From a virus, in UHGV virus genome UHGV-0149790: 21,903 bases of DNA, one strand, 5' to 3'. Below, one piece after another: positions 2,933-9,936 of the stretch (position 1 is the stretch's first letter; each line of letters opens with the position of its first letter). The translations under genes were made by a program, and so were the position numbers. The notes beneath the pieces were generated by a model. That model worked only from the letters and a program-made list of their open reading frames with translations, did no database searches and was not told the origin of the DNA.

Positions 2933-3379
2933 TTAAACGCTGGTCAGGCGCTGTGTTTCTCGCATAGCTTGCAATGCTCTGGCGACTTGCTGCGGCCCGT
3001 CTCTGGCGTCGAGTAACAACGCGATAATCGCCGCGGCAAACTCGCGAATGGCCACACAAATTAAATACTGAGTGGACATACCCAAGCGCGCGTAACGTTC
3101 TGCCGGCAGCGCCGCTTCCATCGCTTTGACCAGCGCCAGAGTTTTGGCTCTCGCGGCTTTGGTCTCGCCTCGCAACCAACGAAAAATTTGTTGGCGGTTG
3201 TTGTTGATTGCCCGCCAGTCGGCGTTTCCATCTGCATCTTCGATCTGGTGCAGCTTCAGCGAACCGGTATTACCACCAAGACGAAACCACATGCGGCTTA
3301 TCTCGATAGCAACCAGCTCCTGCCCGCTTTCCGCTGCCCAGTTAAAGATCTCTCGTTTAAGTTCTTCGAGGTATTCCAC
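2933..3379 (-). CDS. CII-position regulatory protein, possibly YdaT-family
   Basis: 148-aa helical ORF directly downstream of the Cro-like gene; GTG start at 3379 with AGGAGA 9 nt upstream. Family assignment is from recalled similarity only. Confidence 0.5.
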   Translation of the reverse strand: MEYLEELKREIFNWAAESGQELVAIEISRMWFRLGGNTGSLKLHQIEDADGNADWRAINNNRQQIFRWLRGETKAARAKTLALVKAMEAALPAERYARLGMSTQYLICVAIREFAAAIIALLLDARDGPQQVARALQAMRETQRLTSV

Positions 3380-3441
3380 TTCGAGCGTCTCCTGTCGCTG
3401 AAAATTGATTAAGCGTAATCAGATTTCGATGCCGCTAATTG

Positions 3442-3636
3442 TTAAGCTGATTTGGCTGGCAGTTGGTAAGCCTTTGGGTCATAAACAAGTTCGCCATCAG
3501 TCATCAGAGACAAACGAGCCGCTTTACCTTCAGGAACCAAACGCCCCCACGCATAGACAGTAGGAGCCTTAACGCCAGCGGCCTCAGCCAGTTTTCTCTT
3601 ACTACCAAAATATTTGATCGCATCAGTTGTTAACAT
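3442..3636 (-). CDS. Cro-like HTH regulator (DicC/YdaS type)
   Basis: 64-aa ORF (YFGSKRKLAEAAGV...LVPEGKAARL...GELVYDPKAY) divergent from the repressor gene; AGGAGG RBS; promoter and operators immediately upstream. Confidence 0.75.
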   Translation of the reverse strand: MLTTDAIKYFGSKRKLAEAAGVKAPTVYAWGRLVPEGKAARLSLMTDGELVYDPKAYQLPAKSA

Positions 3637-3650
3637 GAAACACCCTCCTG

Positions 3651-3714
3651 TTAGATTTTTCTAACAAATTAGGTGTTCGAGATAACGAAGTCAAGGAAAT
3701 TTAGAATTATCTAA
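3651..3714. promoter_or_regulatory. OR-like region: two 14-bp palindromic operators and a pR-like promoter for the Cro-like gene
   Basis: TTAGATTTTTCTAA (3651-3664) and TTAGAATTATCTAA (3701-3714). Minus-strand promoter: -35 TTGACT (3694-3689), 17-bp spacer, -10 TAATTT (3671-3666). The first operator overlaps the -10/start site; the second abuts the repressor start codon. Confidence 0.6.
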
Positions 3715-3716
3715 CT

Positions 3717-4103
3717 ATGACAATGCCAGGTGAGCGCATCAGAGCGCGTAGAAAAGATCTCAAACTTACTCAGCGCGCTTTAGCGAAGCTGGTTAACGTC
3801 GCGCACGTCACTATCTCCCAGTGGGAGACCGGTGATAGTGAGCCTGGCGGAAAAAACCTTTTCGCTTTAAGTAACGCACTTCAATGCAGCCCTACCTGGA
3901 TACTTTACGGCGATGAAGCCGCCACTCCGGGAACCCCGGTAGACACCCCGCCGCCATTAGATGAACGAGAAACAGAGCTTTTAAAACTCTTTTCGTCACT
4001 CCCAGAATCTGAAAAAGAGCGGCATTTAACGGAACTTCGCGAAAAAGTAGACGGTTTCAATCGTTTATTTGAGGAGTTACTGCAAGCCCGCAAACAAAAA
4101 TAA
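3717..4103 (+). CDS. short HTH-XRE prophage repressor (DicA-like; no peptidase S24 domain)
   Basis: 128 aa; N-terminal HTH (GERIRARRKDLKLTQRALAKL...ISQWETGDSEPGGKNLFALSNALQCSPTWILYGDE) closely resembles recalled DicA; no Ala-Gly/Ser-Lys autocleavage module; divergent from the Cro-like gene. Confidence 0.85.
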   Translation: MTMPGERIRARRKDLKLTQRALAKLVNVAHVTISQWETGDSEPGGKNLFALSNALQCSPTWILYGDEAATPGTPVDTPPPLDERETELLKLFSSLPESEKERHLTELREKVDGFNRLFEELLQARKQK

Positions 4104-4168
4104 TCCCTTTCTAATCAGTTAGATGCATTTTTTTACGCCCATTGTGTTCGTTTTCTCTAATTTAATCA

Positions 4169-4197
4169 TTGACCAAATTGTTAGATTTATCTAAATT
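4169..4197 (+). promoter_or_regulatory. pL-like promoter with an embedded operator
   Basis: -35 TTGACC (4169-4174), 17-bp spacer, -10 TAAATT (4192-4197); third operator copy TTAGATTTATCTAA at 4181-4194 lies in the spacer/-10. Confidence 0.5.
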
Positions 4198-4348
4198 ACA
4201 TCACATCAACGACGCACTAACCACGCGGCAGTTGTTCAGAAACAGTTCTGACAGTCCGGAAAGACGGGCGCGAATTCTTCGGGTCGCCGACAGTACGATG
4301 ACATGCGGGAAAGACCGCAACGAATGCGAATTGCTGTGTGTAGTCTTG

Positions 4349-4373
4349 GCCCGGGCGCCCCGGGCATTTTTTT
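4349..4373 (+). terminator. intrinsic terminator about 150 nt downstream of the pL-like promoter
   Basis: Perfect 7-bp GC stem GCCCGGG-cgc-CCCGGGC (4349-4365) followed by a run of seven T (4367-4373). Confidence 0.7.
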
Positions 4374-4454
4374 AAAGCATTCACGCAGTAACGAGGAAAG
4401 ACCAATGGGGCTGACCACCCTGACAGCCGGGAAAGACCGGCAACCTTCAGGCGT

Positions 4455-4476
4455 AAAAAAGCCCACCGAAGTGGGC
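4455..4476 (-). terminator. intrinsic terminator on the minus strand, convergent with the plus-strand terminator
   Basis: GCCCAC-cgaa-GTGGGC hairpin (4461-4476) flanked by AAAAAA at 4455-4460, i.e. a T-run after the stem when read on the minus strand. Confidence 0.5.
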
Positions 4477-4597
4477 TAATTTACCCGGGACAGTGACCAA
4501 ACCGCCCAGAATGCTACAGGGGACCAACCCTGTAGCGAGGAAAGACCAACGACAGAGCCGCTGATCGGCTCTGAGTATATATCATCAAGGAGTCGCT

Positions 4598-4921
4598 ATG
4601 GAAGCGCTTACCATCCCCGTAACTATTTACGTTATGGCCACAACCAACCCATATCTACCAACGTCTTATCACTCATTCACCTGTGACATGTCACAGCAAT
4701 ACCCTGATCTGTATGTCCTCGTTACTACCAAAACGGTAGAGGTTGCCATTCCAGCTTTAGAGCCAATCGACATTATTGGTATGCAGGTTAATGCCCTTCG
4801 TGCGAAGAAAGAGAAAATCTCTGCCGAAGCAAAGAAGGAGCTGGGTGTTATTGAAGACCAGATTCAGCAGCTGCTGTGCATCGATCACTCTCCAATTGAA
4901 GAAAGCGACGTACCGTTTTAA
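4598..4921 (+). CDS. hypothetical protein, first gene of the left operon
   Basis: 107-aa ORF with AAGGAG RBS 6 nt upstream; acidic and not arginine-rich, so not N-like. Confidence 0.6.
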   Translation: MEALTIPVTIYVMATTNPYLPTSYHSFTCDMSQQYPDLYVLVTTKTVEVAIPALEPIDIIGMQVNALRAKKEKISAEAKKELGVIEDQIQQLLCIDHSPIEESDVPF

Positions 4922-4965: not shown

Positions 4966-7164
4966 ATGACCATCTACAACGGCTCATTTGAGCCAAAGAA
5001 ATCGGCGATTAAAGACTGCGGCGCCGTGCAGCTGGCGATCGCCATCGATGCGCCAAACAAAAAAGTGGCCGAAAGCATTATGACCGGCAAACTCTGGGAA
5101 TCATACCCGGCCAATGGTGACAACTATTTCAAACCGAAACTGTGGGAACACGTTGAAGGCCAGCCGCTGCCGACCGTTGGCCAGTTCGATGAGTCATTCG
5201 CCCAGCAGCATACTTTTGACGGTGAAAAATGGGTTTCTACTGCGCAGGATAGCGCTTCCGGAAGTGGTGCAGGTTTACCTGCCGACGATGAAGTGATCGA
5301 CCTGATGACCGTTTCCCCTGATGAACGCTTTGCTGCCGTCCTGCTTTTTAGTACCGCGGCGATTGATGGCCATCTTTATTCTCAGGTTGTGGATTATCTG
5401 GATAATCTGAAAAACCACGATGGGGAATTTGAAGAGGAAGATCGCTTTAACTTTAATGTTCTGTGTGCCCTGCAAAATAACTTCCCGGTTCAAAGCATGC
5501 ATGTGGAAGGTCTGAACAATCTTATTCAGGGTATTTTCTCCCACTTTGAAAACCAGACGCCGGGCAAAGCGGCTATCTCTCAGTTCGTTAAACGCTGGCT
5601 TGAGAATCCGGGCAAGCGCGACGAACTGGCCCCCGGCGTATATAAAAATACCGCTCTCAGCACCAGCACCAGCACCAGCACCAGCACCAGCACCAGCACC
5701 AGCACCAGCACCAGCACCGATGATAAAACACCCGTGGTAATTTCTAAGCGCGGATATAAACACACTTATGCAACGCTGGATCAGGAGATCGCTACCGCCC
5801 TTCTCCCGCTGGCGCCTGATGCGCCGGTACTATCCGGAAACCTTCTGGACGCTAAGAAGATGATTTCCGATGACCGGGAAGATTTTAAACGCTGGTCAGC
5901 ATCGCTGCACACCACGCCGCAGATACTCAAATACGACCGCGCCAGCATCTTCGGCGTGGTACAAAACGTACCGGCGAAAGATACCTACCATTTCCCTGAC
6001 AGCCTGCGCCGCCATATCGATTCATGGCTGGCGGCCAACGGCCGCTTTGAGGAAACCGAGACAGGATCCGTTAAACAACCAGAGGCGACGCAAAATACCG
6101 CCTCAAACGTGGGCGAAAAAGTGGAAGCGCAGCAGCCGGTTGTAACCGACACCCAGGCCAAACAGGCGCGTGAGACGCTCAATGATATGGGTTATGGCGT
6201 ATATGCCTCTGGTGAAGGTGCAGAGCCGGAAGAGAAGTTAAGCGTTAAGGCTGAAAAACTGGCTGATGATTCCGAGCGTTTAGCAAAACAAATCGCTCAC
6301 GCTGAAAGCCTGCCTAACGCTGAGGATGTTGTGCAGGCTGTCGGAAAACCAATCATCGGGGAAGACAATTTAGACCTCTGGAAACGCGTATTTAAAACCG
6401 ACGAAAGGTTTACTAAGGCTTTCACACAGAACGGCGGTGGCACCTCGATCAACGGTACCTACATGACCATGCTTGCCACACGTGAGTTTGGCCCTAAGGG
6501 CATCGGCTGGGGCGTGGATATTGTTGAAGAGCGTTTCGATATTGGCGCGCCGATCACTCGGCAAGTAAAAGGCAAAGACAACAACGCATCGTGGGAGCTG
6601 GTTCTTGATGGGAATGGTAATACCGTCAACGAACAGCACCATGTTGTGACTGTCCGGCTCTGGTACATCCTGAACGGAGTACGAGGTGAGGAAACAGCAT
6701 ACGGCTGTACACCCTACATTTACGGTAGTAAATACGGGATCACCTGCGACGGCGAAGCAGCCAAAAAATCACTGACAGATGCGACCAAAAAAGCGTTATC
6801 CGGCCTCGGATTCAGTGGCGATATCTTTATGGGGCTTTACGACAATCTGGAGTACCGCCAGAAGAACAAGGCCGAGTTTGACCTGAAGAACGCCAGCGAA
6901 TCAGCCGAAGATGCAGCACGGCTCCGCCAGGAGTTTGACGATAAATTAAGCCGCGTTGCTAATACCCTGGCGCATGGCGTGACGGTGAACGAAATCAACG
7001 GTGTGTTTTCCCCTATCGCACGTGAGATCGATGTTCACATTAAAGCCGCCCAGGCCAACGGCGACACGCAGCATGAACGTTATCTGTCTGGCCGGCTCCG
7101 CCGACTCATCTCCATCAAAGATGGGCGCATTAAAGAACTGAATAAAGCCGAGGAGAAAGCATAA
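4966..7164 (+). CDS. large recombination protein: N-terminal region of unknown function, (Ser-Thr)10 linker, C-terminal Rad52-like single-strand annealing domain
   Basis: ATG at 4966 preceded by GAGGAAAGACCA; C-terminal motif GCTPYIYGSKYGITCDGEAAKKSLTDATKKALSGLGFSGDIFMGLYD matches the Rad52/Sak signature (K-x-A-V-T-D-x-x-K-R-A-L-x-x-F-G); 733 aa from this start. Confidence 0.7.
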   Translation: MTIYNGSFEPKKSAIKDCGAVQLAIAIDAPNKKVAESIMTGKLWESYPANGDNYFKPKLWEHVEGQPLPTVGQFDESFAQQHTFDGEKWVSTAQDSASGSGAGLPADDEVIDLMTVSPDERFAAVLLFSTAAIDGHLYSQVVDYLDNLKNHDGEFEEEDRFNFNVLCALQNNFPVQSMHVEGLNNLIQGIFSHFENQTPGKAAISQFVKRWLENPGKRDELAPGVYKNTALSTSTSTSTSTSTSTSTSTSTDDKTPVVISKRGYKHTYATLDQEIATALLPLAPDAPVLSGNLLDAKKMISDDREDFKRWSASLHTTPQILKYDRASIFGVVQNVPAKDTYHFPDSLRRHIDSWLAANGRFEETETGSVKQPEATQNTASNVGEKVEAQQPVVTDTQAKQARETLNDMGYGVYASGEGAEPEEKLSVKAEKLADDSERLAKQIAHAESLPNAEDVVQAVGKPIIGEDNLDLWKRVFKTDERFTKAFTQNGGGTSINGTYMTMLATREFGPKGIGWGVDIVEERFDIGAPITRQVKGKDNNASWELVLDGNGNTVNEQHHVVTVRLWYILNGVRGEETAYGCTPYIYGSKYGITCDGEAAKKSLTDATKKALSGLGFSGDIFMGLYDNLEYRQKNKAEFDLKNASESAEDAARLRQEFDDKLSRVANTLAHGVTVNEINGVFSPIAREIDVHIKAAQANGDTQHERYLSGRLRRLISIKDGRIKELNKAEEKA
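5659..5718. repeat. perfect hexanucleotide tandem repeat (AGCACC)x10 encoding (Ser-Thr)10
   Basis: Ten uninterrupted AGCACC units read directly in the sequence, in frame within the 4966..7164 CDS. Confidence 0.95.
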
Positions 7165-7731: not shown

Positions 7732-7917
7732 ATGCTGAAACTCACACTGAAACGAGGCGACGCGCTTCACGTCGTTTTTCCGGACGGTACTAACGGGATA
7801 ATCGAAGCCTGCGCGCGTTGTGAACTGGCTATGCATTTTCCGCGCAGTGCCAAAATCACCCGCGAAAATGGCGCGTTCCGGAATAAACCAAACCTGATTA
7901 AGCCTAATCAGAAATAA
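7732..7917 (+). CDS. small beta-rich protein (61 aa), CsrA-like or AbrB/MazE-like N-terminus
   Basis: ATG at 7732, 1 nt after the upstream stop; MLKLTLKRGDALHVV...FPRSAKITREN matches CsrA (MLILTRRVGETL...APKEVSVHREE) in length and pattern, but also resembles swapped-hairpin proteins. Confidence 0.5.
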   Translation: MLKLTLKRGDALHVVFPDGTNGIIEACARCELAMHFPRSAKITRENGAFRNKPNLIKPNQK

Positions 7918-8372: not shown

Positions 8373-9372
8373 GAACCCCGCTGATAACTGGATGCCGCCC
8401 CGCGTGTATCGCGGTAAGGCGGCGTATGAATTCAGGAATAAAGATAACAAGGCTATCAGGCTATGTGCGCTCTCCGAGCCTCAATCAGCTGTATGGCTGG
8501 CATATGAAAAAGCCATGGGAGAAGAAGTCGAGCGCAAGACGTTTCAGGCTCTGGCCGATCAATTCATGTCTTCCCCTGACTGGCAGGATTTAGCGGCAGA
8601 AACCCGAAAAGACTACACGAAATACGCAGGCAAAGTGTTGCCGGTGTTCGGGAAGGTTAACCCCGATAAAATTAAACCGGAACACATCCGGCGCTATATG
8701 GATCAGCGTGGCATGGCCAGTAAAACGCAGGCCAACCGGGAAAAGAGTTTTCTTTCTCGGGTATTCCGCTGGGGTTATGAGCGGGGTTACGTCCAGCATA
8801 ATCCCTGTCAGGGCGTTAAGAAGTTCAAAGAGGCAGCCCGGGAGCGTTACATCACCGACGAAGAATACAAAGCGGTTTACGATGTTGCTCCAGACGTAGT
8901 TCGCGCCACCATGGAAATCGCTTATTTGTGTCTGGCCAGACAAAGCGATGTGCTGGCTTTGACTGAAGACCAGATACGCGAAACCGGGATCTTTATCCGC
9001 CAGGGGAAAACAGGCGTGAAGCAAATCAAAGCATGGTCGCCACGCCTGCGCGCCGCTGTCGCCCTCGCCCGTTCCCTGCCGTTAAAGCCGGGTATCCGTA
9101 GCCTGTTTGTCATTCACCAGACCAGCGGCAGCAAATACACCCGTGACGGTTTTAATTCACGCTGGCGCGACGCGAAAATCGCAGCGCAGGAAAAGAACCC
9201 ACACCTGCAGATAGATTTCACTTTCCACGATCTGAAAGCGAAAGGTGTCTCTGATCTGGAAGGAAGCCTCGAGGAGAAACAGGCGATTTCAGGCCATAAG
9301 AATTCGAGACAAACGGCGATTTACGACAGGAAAACTAAAATTGTGCCGGTTGTTGGTGGTCAGAAAAAATGA
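8356..9372 (+). CDS. int: tyrosine site-specific integrase (lambda Int family)
   Basis: 338 aa; C-terminal catalytic region with HDLKAKGVSD, GHKNSRQTAIY and the terminal Tyr; 3' end faces the att core 120 bp away. Confidence 0.9.
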   Translation: MAGKRKNPADNWMPPRVYRGKAAYEFRNKDNKAIRLCALSEPQSAVWLAYEKAMGEEVERKTFQALADQFMSSPDWQDLAAETRKDYTKYAGKVLPVFGKVNPDKIKPEHIRRYMDQRGMASKTQANREKSFLSRVFRWGYERGYVQHNPCQGVKKFKEAARERYITDEEYKAVYDVAPDVVRATMEIAYLCLARQSDVLALTEDQIRETGIFIRQGKTGVKQIKAWSPRLRAAVALARSLPLKPGIRSLFVIHQTSGSKYTRDGFNSRWRDAKIAAQEKNPHLQIDFTFHDLKAKGVSDLEGSLEEKQAISGHKNSRQTAIYDRKTKIVPVVGGQKK

Positions 9373-9433
9373 ATCGCTATGCGTTCGTTGAAAAATCATC
9401 TTCGGACGCATCTTCGGAAAGGAGAGTTTCAGA

Positions 9434-9458
9434 TACAAAAAAACCACCCGTAGGTGGT
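9434..9458 (-). terminator. intrinsic terminator between int and the att core, strongest on the minus strand
   Basis: AACCACC-cgta-GGTGGTT stem (9441-9458) preceded by AAAAAAA (9434-9440), a T7 run after the hairpin on the minus strand. Confidence 0.55.
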
Positions 9459-9492
9459 TTCACGACACTGCTTATTGCTTTGATTATTCTGC

Positions 9493-9548
9493 TTTATCCC
9501 AATGGTACCCGGAGCGGGACTTGAACCCGCACAGCGCGAACGCCGAGG
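9493..9548 (-). other. att core: 56-nt 3'-terminal fragment of tRNA-Leu (anticodon UAA), not an intact tRNA gene
   Basis: Minus strand reads ATTTAAAATCCCTCGGCGTTCGCGCTGTGCGGGTTCAAGTCCCGCTCCGGGTACCA: anticodon loop, long variable arm, T-arm GGTTCAAGTCC, acceptor 3' strand and CCA. The 5' half of the tRNA is absent (sequence diverges at 9549). Confidence 0.75.
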
Positions 9549-9696
9549 GATTTTAAATTGGTGGTGATTATTCTAAATATCAAATAGATATGAAAAAAAT
9601 CCGAACATACGCTAATAAACTAGCATCATGAAAACAATAAGTTACAGCAATGTTTTAGACTATCTTCTGACGCTTATCATACCTCAAATTCAATAT

Positions 9697-9936
9697 TTAT
9701 TCAGTCGCGCGGTACCACGATTGCCAGCGGTAGATATTCGTACGTAACTCCCGCACACACTCTGCTGACTGTGTATCCGCCAGCAGATCAGCGTCGCTAT
9801 CTGCGCCAGCGTTACTTATCTTGCACGGTCGGTTCATCAAATCCGGGGATGGCGTTGGCCGCGTCGATTGCTCGTTGGCGCAGCTGCACAGCAGCAGGAT
9901 CAAACTGGCACACAGTACGATTCGGGTCATTGACAT
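9697..9936 (-). CDS. Rz1-like o-spanin (outer-membrane lipoprotein), overlapping the Rz gene
   Basis: Signal-like N-terminus MSMTRIVLCASLILLLCSCANE with Cys near the cleavage region, Pro-rich mature part; out-of-frame overlap with Rz and extends past it. Confidence 0.5.
   Translation of the reverse strand: MSMTRIVLCASLILLLCSCANEQSTRPTPSPDLMNRPCKISNAGADSDADLLADTQSAECVRELRTNIYRWQSWYRATE

Follow-up and report, generated by a model that had tools for sequence, protein, structure and literature searches.

A predicted DicA-type immunity switch with three perfect palindromes at its promoters in the virus genome UHGV-0149790

The closest described counterpart of the element reported here is the DicA/DicC switch of Qin, a cryptic prophage remnant of Escherichia coli K-12. 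DicA binds the operator Oc in vivo and represses dicC, and single base changes in Oc abolish this binding (PMC3441716); the system shows no induction by mitomycin C, and its repression is relieved by the antirepressor Rem (PMC10448788). The repressors of the Salmonella phages Gifsy-1, -2 and -3 (GfoR, GtgR and GfhR), which belong to the same group as DicA and RacR, are uncleaved proteins that are stripped off the DNA by LexA-controlled antirepressors encoded outside the immunity region (PMC3121763). Here, we analysed a 21,903-nucleotide (nt) stretch of the virus genome UHGV-0149790 (the window, in whose numbering all coordinates are given) and found a region that is homologous, part by part, to DicA-DicC-dicBp. 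We consider it very probable that the region as a whole is a DicA-type immunity switch, in keeping with the first-pass annotation of this DNA, which had proposed an immunity switch at this place. Sequence comparison supports its assignment as the lysis/lysogeny switch of a temperate enteric (Enterobacterales) phage and as a close relative of the studied Qin system. The predicted parts of the switch are:

3717-4103, plus strand: gene of the DicA-family repressor, 128 residues (HTH_3 in Pfam, NF007257 in NCBIfam).
3442-3636, minus strand: cro-like gene, 64 residues, first gene of the pR operon, with a DicC/P22-Cro-like product.
3666-3694, minus strand: promoter pR as read from the sequence, TTGACT (3694-3689), 17-nt spacer, TAATTT (3671-3666).
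4169-4197, plus strand: promoter pL, TTGACC (4169-4174), 17 nt, TAAATT (4192-4197).
3649-3666: putative operator OR1, TGTTAGATTTTTCTAACA (core 3651-3664), abutting the pR -10 and covering the expected pR start; counterpart of Qin Oc.
3699-3716: putative operator OR3, ATTTAGAATTATCTAACT (core 3701-3714), including a TAGAAT -10 element (3702-3707); counterpart of Qin Oa.
4181-4194 (core): putative operator OL1, TGTTAGATTTATCTAAAT, which fills the pL spacer and reaches 3 nt into the -10.
4147-4160: putative degenerate operator OL2, TTCG-TTTTCT-CTAA, 34 base pairs (bp) upstream of OL1.
3676-3689: candidate Om-like middle operator, weak, TTCG-N6-CGAA, located within the pR spacer at 25 bp from both neighbours.

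The repressor is 63% identical to Qin DicA over 123 residues and passes the NCBIfam DicA model NF007257 (185.8 bits over residues 5-127; cut-off 101). Its N-terminal domain, to which the homology with P22 C2 is confined, matches the C2 DNA-binding domain at E = 9e-22 with about 61% identity, and the structural model (predicted local distance difference test, pLDDT, 90.7) superposes on P22 C2 at a root-mean-square deviation (rmsd) of 0.5 Å. The model comprises a five-helix helix-turn-helix (HTH) domain at about residues 4-64, a linker, a helix at residues 83-93 and a long helix at residues 97-127; the motif LPESE...FNxLFEELLxAR of this C-terminal domain is conserved in 63 homologues. The protein had been described beforehand as a 128-residue HTH repressor of the DicA type without an S24 peptidase domain, and this description holds: Pfam finds HTH families only (HTH_3), two helices follow the linker in the model, and the S24 C-terminal domain with an Ala-Gly cleavage site that defines the lambda CI and P22 C2 class is not present. 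A full-length S24-containing repressor, encoded elsewhere and controlling the same promoters, had been named as one of the findings that would speak against the annotated switch. No S24 peptidase was found in the window, in phage BUCT709 (the closest sequenced relative, 91% identical across the immunity region) or in the early regions of the lysogens that we compared, eight in number and all encoding a repressor identical to that of the window, and a tblastn search with an approximate LexA query gave no match in the window, BUCT709 and three lysogens. Since the repressor lacks an S24 domain, unlike the repressors of P22 and lambda, which cleave themselves when triggered by RecA, induction here would not proceed by RecA-stimulated self-cleavage. 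The Cro-like protein matches Pfam P22_Cro with 54.4 bits (cut-off 30.2) and is 60% identical to Qin DicC; on the NCBIfam DicC model it reaches 78.7 bits, under the cut-off of 130.

Do the palindromes of the region behave as operators? Exact TTAGA-N4-TCTAA palindromes lie at 3651-3664 (TTAGATTTTTCTAA), 3701-3714 (TTAGAATTATCTAA) and 4181-4194 (TTAGATTTATCTAA), precisely where the first-pass annotation had placed them. They are the sole matches in the 21.9 kilobases (kb), even at one mismatch; 0.38 would be expected by chance, and three or more occurred in none of 100 shuffles of the window. A weight matrix trained on related loci only, from which the window and BUCT709 were excluded, picks the same sites as the top three of the window (OR1 25.0, OL1 23.6 and OR3 22.7 bits), while the best score in shuffled sequence is 10.1 bits on average and 14.3 bits at the 95th percentile. 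With respect to the promoters, the earlier placement of OR3 at the repressor start (its core ends 2 nt ahead of the ATG at 3717) and of OL1 inside the pL spacer stands, whereas OR1 does not overlie the pR -10 but starts 2 nt past it, over the expected start site. OL2, which had been missed before, is fourth in the window with 11.8 bits and is kept in BUCT709 (locus L003), in locus L004 and in 8/8 lysogens, with variable surrounding bases. In phages with an identical repressor the spacer-adjacent base varies (TCTAA or CCTAA), so that the constrained core is TTAG(A)-N5-CTAA with TG/CA flanks rather than strictly 5-N4-5.

An inverted-polarity version of the palindrome, TCTAATCAGTTAGA, is present at 4110-4123, as had been noted, but it is not conserved. 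It reads CATAATCATATAGA in BUCT709, is absent in L004 and has ATAGA or GTAGA as its right half in all eight lysogens. We rejected it as an operator, and also as a terminator, for which its hairpin of -1.5 kcal/mol (z = 0) is too weak. Because it is not conserved even beside an identical repressor, the inverted site is probably a chance occurrence.

Site by site, the layout follows that of Qin. Oc (TTGTTAGTCATAACTAACAA) lies 15 nt from the dicC start and corresponds to OR1, with which it shares the identical arms TGTTAG...CTAACA and a position beside the ribosome-binding site of the cro gene; Oa (TTAGCATTAGCTAA) is followed by 'ct' and the dicA ATG, just as TTAGAATTATCTAA is followed by 'ct' and the repressor ATG. 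The Qin promoter dicBp has the form TTGACC-N6-TTAGTCATGGCTAA where pL has TTGACC-N6-TTAGATTTATCTAA, and a degenerate second pL site occurs in both at the same upstream distance of 34 bp. The two systems differ in that the three Qin sites vary among themselves, whereas the three of the window are all perfect TTAGA-N4-TCTAA, and in what the promoters serve: after cro, the window has a ydaT-type analogue of cII and replication genes in place of the ydfX and ydfW of Qin, and its pL feeds another operon. Qin is a cryptic remnant, whereas the window appears to be a complete, unintegrated phage with lysis and virion genes.

More distant systems share parts of this design. As in the window, the PaaR2-YdaS-YdaT locus of CP-933P (E. 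coli O157:H7) combines a peptidase-less repressor with a divergent Cro-like gene followed by YdaT; its repressor mRNA is leaderless, palindromes lie over pRM and pR, a related pL has operators of its own, and the switch is bistable (PMC8630535). PaaR2 is, however, distant from DicA, recognises a GTTTAGTAA consensus in four evenly spaced repeats, and is followed by a toxin-antitoxin pair. Divergent pRM and pR promoters plus a pL are found with P22 C2/Cro and lambda CI/Cro as well; the cro of the window is of the P22_Cro family, and the P22 operators TTAAG-N4-CTTAA have the same 5-N4-5 format. The strong sites lie 50 bp apart at OR of the window (34 bp at OL), whereas those of P22 and lambda are adjacent (23-24 bp).

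Scanning one genome per species gave 59 loci that encode relatives, and the divergent regions of 16 related loci were aligned. TTAG and CTAA of the operators in this region are invariant in 16/16 loci. At OR3, TTTAG-ATT and the repressor ATG are invariant, the intervening CTAAC is nearly so, and the TAG-AT of the -10 element within OR3 is invariant as well. The half-sites change together with the recognition helix of the repressor:

Helix ...SQWE: half-sites TTAG.
Helix ...FKWE: ACTTA-N8-TAAGT.
Helix ...SLWE: TTGAG-N4-CTCAA.
P22-like helix: TTAAG-N4-CTTAA.

Every half-site variant recurs at pR and pL of its own locus, and the pL operator fits the pR region of its own locus better than those of other loci (permutation p ~1e-4). 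The conserved position of the palindromes, their co-variation with the recognition helix and their match to Oc support the view that they act as operators.

The pR -35 (AGTCAA, i.e. TTGACT on the minus strand) is kept in 14/16 aligned loci, and the pL layout TTGACC-N6-TTAG...CTAA is the same in Qin dicBp and other related loci. For the repressor, the TAGAAT -10 element at 3702-3707 lies within OR3 and ends 9 nt before the ATG, and there is no Shine-Dalgarno sequence ahead of the ATG at 3717. Because dicA and racR mRNAs are leaderless (PMC4681348; Qin dicA in Fig. 2 there) and a Shine-Dalgarno sequence is lacking here, the repressor mRNA is probably leaderless too, as is that of lambda cI. OR3 would then double as the -10 and start region of the repressor promoter and as an autoregulatory operator. 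A promoter-like match on the plus strand at 3630-3657 was considered as the repressor promoter and judged unlikely, its -35 not being conserved and dicA being leaderless.

On either side, the switch is flanked by early genes. In the pR arm, the cro-like gene is followed by the genes of a YdaT-type protein, an O-like protein and a DnaB helicase; downstream of pL lie an exonuclease-like gene, a Gp157-family gene, a DUF4224 gene (possibly an excisionase) and an integrase gene. Two features of the pR arm would concern the establishment of lysogeny:

2933-3379, minus strand: YdaT-type gene, 148 residues, in the cII position (Pfam YdaT_toxin 76.1 bits; phrog_163, 'CII-like transcriptional activator').
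3405-3422: candidate YdaT box, TTGATTAAGCGTAATCAG, located between the cro-like and ydaT-like genes.

The box has one mismatch to the described YdaT site TTGATT-N6-AATCAA (PMC9986795), and among the 26 loci checked, 15 (the window included) have a YdaT-type site with at most two mismatches at 298-332 nt upstream of the repressor start codon. A second YdaT-like box, CTGATTAAGCCTAATCAG at 7894-7911, lies upstream of the xis-like and int genes and shares 16/18 bases with TTGATTAAGCGTAATCAG. The box at 3405-3422 may be the site of an establishment promoter, and together the two boxes look like counterparts of lambda pRE and pI.

How would such a switch work? For this phage we infer DNA binding, a leaderless start and antirepressor action as follows. 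A repressor dimer, probably held together by the short helical C-terminal domain, would bind TGTTAG(A)-N4-(T/C)CTAAC(A) operators through its P22 C2-like HTH domain, as homology suggests. At OR1 it would block pR, from which the replication genes are expressed together with cro and the ydaT-like gene; at OL1, aided by the weak OL2, it would block pL and thereby the recombination, xis-like and int genes. The repressor itself would be made from the weak promoter whose -10 lies inside OR3, with its mRNA starting at or next to the ATG. Binding at OR3 would limit this synthesis, while silencing of the overlapping strong pR would favour the repressor promoter. By analogy with the described systems, the Cro-like protein would shut the repressor promoter through the same sites during lytic growth, and the YdaT box downstream of cro probably serves the establishment of lysogeny by the CII-analogous YdaT. 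Upon induction, a promoter beside ninB under LexA control would yield a 63-residue antirepressor, which would bind the repressor and detach it from the DNA.

The evidence for this last step comes from the relatives. The first-pass annotation had seen neither an antirepressor gene nor a LexA box and had suggested searching for a LexA-controlled antirepressor elsewhere. Indeed, the window holds no credible LexA box, and tblastn with Rem, and again with the 63-residue proteins described below, found no antirepressor in the window, although the Rem search is insensitive, as it also missed the BUCT709 homologue, which surfaced through its PHROG family only. In BUCT709, a promoter with the canonical LexA box CTGTATATAAAAACAG directly precedes a 63-residue open reading frame (ORF) upstream of ninB, and both this ORF and Rem match phrog_340 (9e-17 and 4e-21, respectively), as does the copy of the protein in locus L063 (5e-23). 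A canonical LexA box upstream of ninB occurs in all eight lysogens examined, and in six of them a called 63-residue Rem-family gene stands right behind it; in those six, the box (TACTGTAATTTTATACAGTA or a one-base variant) lies between the -10 and the ribosome-binding site. Thus, the proposal of a LexA-controlled antirepressor is borne out for the relatives, while in this phage the gene, by alignment, would lie about 3 kb past the left end of the window. The repressors of Qin and the window alike lack S24, and a Rem-family antirepressor is found in Qin as in the relatives of the window, whose gene has a canonical LexA box.

The Gifsy phages offer the nearest parallel for this arrangement. Their repressors are likewise short (about 130-136 residues), and their antirepressors (GfoA, GftA and GfhA) are encoded, like that of the relatives, by small genes with a LexA box that lie outside the immunity region, downstream of replication genes. 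In Gifsy, however, the gene is part of a dinI-antirepressor-irsA operon, whereas the 63-residue gene stands alone just upstream of ninB. A 63-residue antirepressor of the Rem/GfoA family under LexA control would most likely be the route of induction here.

As to its mode of action, we considered but did not adopt the idea that the antirepressor mimics the C-terminal helix of the repressor in the manner of SinI. Foldseek returned SinR-SinI (1b0n) and the phi106 repressor-AimX complex (9sf2) as whole-length analogues of the repressor, at an rmsd above 8 Å; the motif shared with the antirepressor is weak, its best hhalign segment (EHVATLNALFE against EKVDGFNRLFE in the repressor) having 1.4% probability only, and the antirepressor model is of low confidence (pLDDT 60). 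Gifsy repressor and antirepressor form an A2B2 tetramer (PMC3121763), which speaks against a SinI-like disruption of the dimer. Pfam has no family for Rem, for the small ORFs of the window and BUCT709, or for the 63-residue protein and its homologues.

Two other sequences resembling LexA boxes deserve mention. CTGTGACATGTCACAG (4681-4696), a perfect 16-bp palindrome with LexA-box ends, lies in the first pL gene (107 residues, phrog_2479) and is found in 5/8 lysogens; we rejected it as a LexA box, because its spacer is GC-rich, the CTGTAT...ATACAG pattern is missing, it sits inside a coding sequence and it is absent in 3/8 lysogens. BUCT709 has a second good LexA box, CTGTACATAAAAACAG (16137-16152 of L003), between the int and a recombinase gene.

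Several observations weigh against the switch as we read it. In one in vivo assay on Qin, DicA reportedly bound neither Oa nor Om (PMC3441716, where the data are not shown), which makes repressor binding at 3701-3714 less certain, even though this palindrome matches the other two perfectly. The middle site at 3676-3689 scores at background level (5.4 bits, rank 8 in the window); in the relatives, CTAA often lies directly beside the pR -35 at this position, and the site is an uncertain candidate that we name for its position. The pR -10 is weak, matching 3 of 6 positions only, for which reason the promoter scan did not list pR; the match at 3630-3657 would be an unlikely residual source of repressor mRNA. 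Derepression of DicA independent of Rem is documented (PMC10448788), and as the 63-residue gene falls outside the window, its presence in UHGV-0149790 is a prediction.

Some of these points lead to other readings. That only OR1 and OL1 are repressor operators, with OR3 being mainly the -10 and start of the leaderless promoter, hardly occupied by the repressor and maybe a preferred site of Cro, is in our view unlikely, although it has the most in its favour among the alternatives. The failure of DicA to bind Oa in vivo fits it, four loci (L007, L012, L013 and L045) keep the TAGAAT half and lose the right half-site, and a TAG-AT that is invariant across immunity types is what a promoter element would show. 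However, OR3 is here an exact palindrome of 22.7 bits, and both promoters are protected by PaaR2 in CP-933P (PMC8630535); the fifth half-site base, at which the three sites of the window agree, sets Oa (TTAGC) apart from Oc (TTAGT), and this difference could explain the negative result in Qin. Less probable still is a derepression that is mainly antirepressor-independent and driven, as in Qin, by intrinsic instability of the repressor and Cro-dependent bistable flipping. In Qin, spontaneous, heat- or urea-elicited derepression of dicBp indeed requires DicC and neither Rem nor RecA (PMC10448788), and the window is devoid of an antirepressor, but the Rem-family gene with its LexA box in BUCT709 and in lysogens with an identical repressor fits a selected SOS input of the kind shown for the Gifsy phages (PMC3121763); both routes can also coexist.

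We find it very improbable that the region is a toxin-antitoxin-like cassette, as a RacR/YdaS/YdaT reading would have it, and not a developmental switch. The Pfam names 'YdaS_toxin' and 'YdaT_toxin' and the toxicity of ectopic YdaS and YdaT in E. coli (discussed in PMC5917428 and PMC11879457) point that way, yet the genes lie where cro and cII would stand in an early region that is complete, with replication on one side and recombination and integrase on the other, and the window continues into lysis and virion genes. YdaT is, moreover, a DNA-binding equivalent of CII (PMC9986795) whose candidate box lies at the expected place; box and gene context argue for cro and cII roles (PMC5917428, PMC9986795). 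Finally, a short, AT-rich half-site in an AT-rich intergenic region could in principle yield palindromes by chance, but the shuffles, the matrix built from relatives, and the conservation of position and co-variation of sequence across genera have already refuted this explanation, to which we give practically no weight.

Past the integrase, the window contains an attachment site (attP) core at 9425-9560. Homology to the prophages ends at this core, at 9558, and about 130 bp of it also match the attP regions of several E. coli phages, e.g. mEp390; in the eight lysogens examined the prophage adjoins pgsA-uvrC, and no tRNA gene was found in 9300-9800. Because lysis and virion genes follow the attP core, the window looks like an unintegrated, apparently complete phage. 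Two repeat arrays were observed in the flanking early genes. The O-like replication gene contains direct repeats, TATTCTCTGTA twice (2277-2299) and three copies of ~30 nt with a 23-bp spacing (2304-2379), which resemble the origin iterons within lambdoid O genes. The exonuclease-like protein (743 residues, phrog_2489; its homologues in lysogens have Pfam YdfE_N) carries a Ser-Thr repeat encoded by a perfect (CAGCAC)x10 microsatellite at 5658-5718, the length of which could vary.

What does pL transcribe before it reaches these genes? The pL leader is poor in ORFs and contains a strong terminator at 4349-4375. At gathering thresholds Rfam has no match in the window; a full-length sub-threshold match to RprA covers 4274-4375 on the plus strand (41.6 bits, gathering score 70, E ~7e-4). 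It rests on the 18-nt ATTGCTGTGTGTAGTCTT (core 4328-4345), followed by a GC hairpin and a U run, and the seven sequences aligned do not differ in these 18 nt (RprA of E. coli, the window, two lysogens, and the Enterobacter, Serratia and BUCT709 loci). In RprA, the 18-nt core lies within the processed 3' form of 47 nt, for which activity in vivo is described (PMC9262595). More than 120 viral contigs of IMG/VR contain this 18-mer, and what comes next is either a DicF-type body or a short terminator hairpin, the stems of which vary widely from contig to contig; the literature that we searched contains no description of an 18-nt core common to RprA, phage leaders and DicF variants. We tentatively speculate that pL may first yield a regulatory RNA of ~170 nt that ends at 4349-4375, has a 3' part copying the conserved 3' half of RprA and acts as a host-directed riboregulator. 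If so, a DicA-type switch would upon derepression release such a riboregulator besides the phage genes, in parallel to the control of DicF by DicA in Qin, with an RprA-type seed. The minus strand, at 4456-4540, has Rfam matches to isrB (28.7 bits, gathering score 35, E ~0.003) and rsmX that stay below threshold. A hairpin resembling a terminator (4477-4460), with a T run behind it, marks their end, and the stretch may encode a second small RNA in antisense to the pL leader.

The leader also holds five of the ten copies of the repeat GGAAAGAC, which occurs on the plus strand at 4258, 4308, 4395, 4430, 4539, 4956, 8118 and 11094 and on the minus strand at 2922 and 282, its strand following the local early genes (plus in the pL arm, minus in the pR arm). 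Two of the leader copies lie in GC hairpins (GCGG-GAAAGA-CCGC and GCCGG-GAAAGA-CCGGC), and one is followed by a 24-codon ORF. At gene starts, the repeat forms a cassette, GAGGAAAGACCA-ATG, often just past the preceding stop codon. The leader copies were considered as boxB-like or protein-binding RNA sites and rejected as such, since the motif is the ribosome-binding cassette GAGGAAAGACCAATG of early genes in both arms.

How common is this repressor? Its exact sequence is widespread, with 190 index blocks listing it, and it is common in Klebsiella-type genomes. The closest sequenced phages, BUCT708 and BUCT709, which are 86-91% identical to the window in the early region, carry Stenotrophomonas phage labels, while genomes of Klebsiella, Raoultella and Citrobacter carry the immunity genes of their early region; a check of the host label may be worthwhile.

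In summary, we found a probable immunity switch whose design is known from Qin and whose induction logic is known from Gifsy and Rem, so that nothing in it is surprising to specialists in lambdoid regulation. Taken alone, it adds little: the DicA/Gifsy class of uncleaved repressors gains one well-preserved case, which probably stems from an active phage. With its perfect operators, an apparently complete phage and a common repressor, however, it would lend itself to experiments better than the cryptic Qin prophage, namely on the questions of how widely spaced operators are used, how a leaderless mRNA is autoregulated and how the Rem family is linked to the SOS response.

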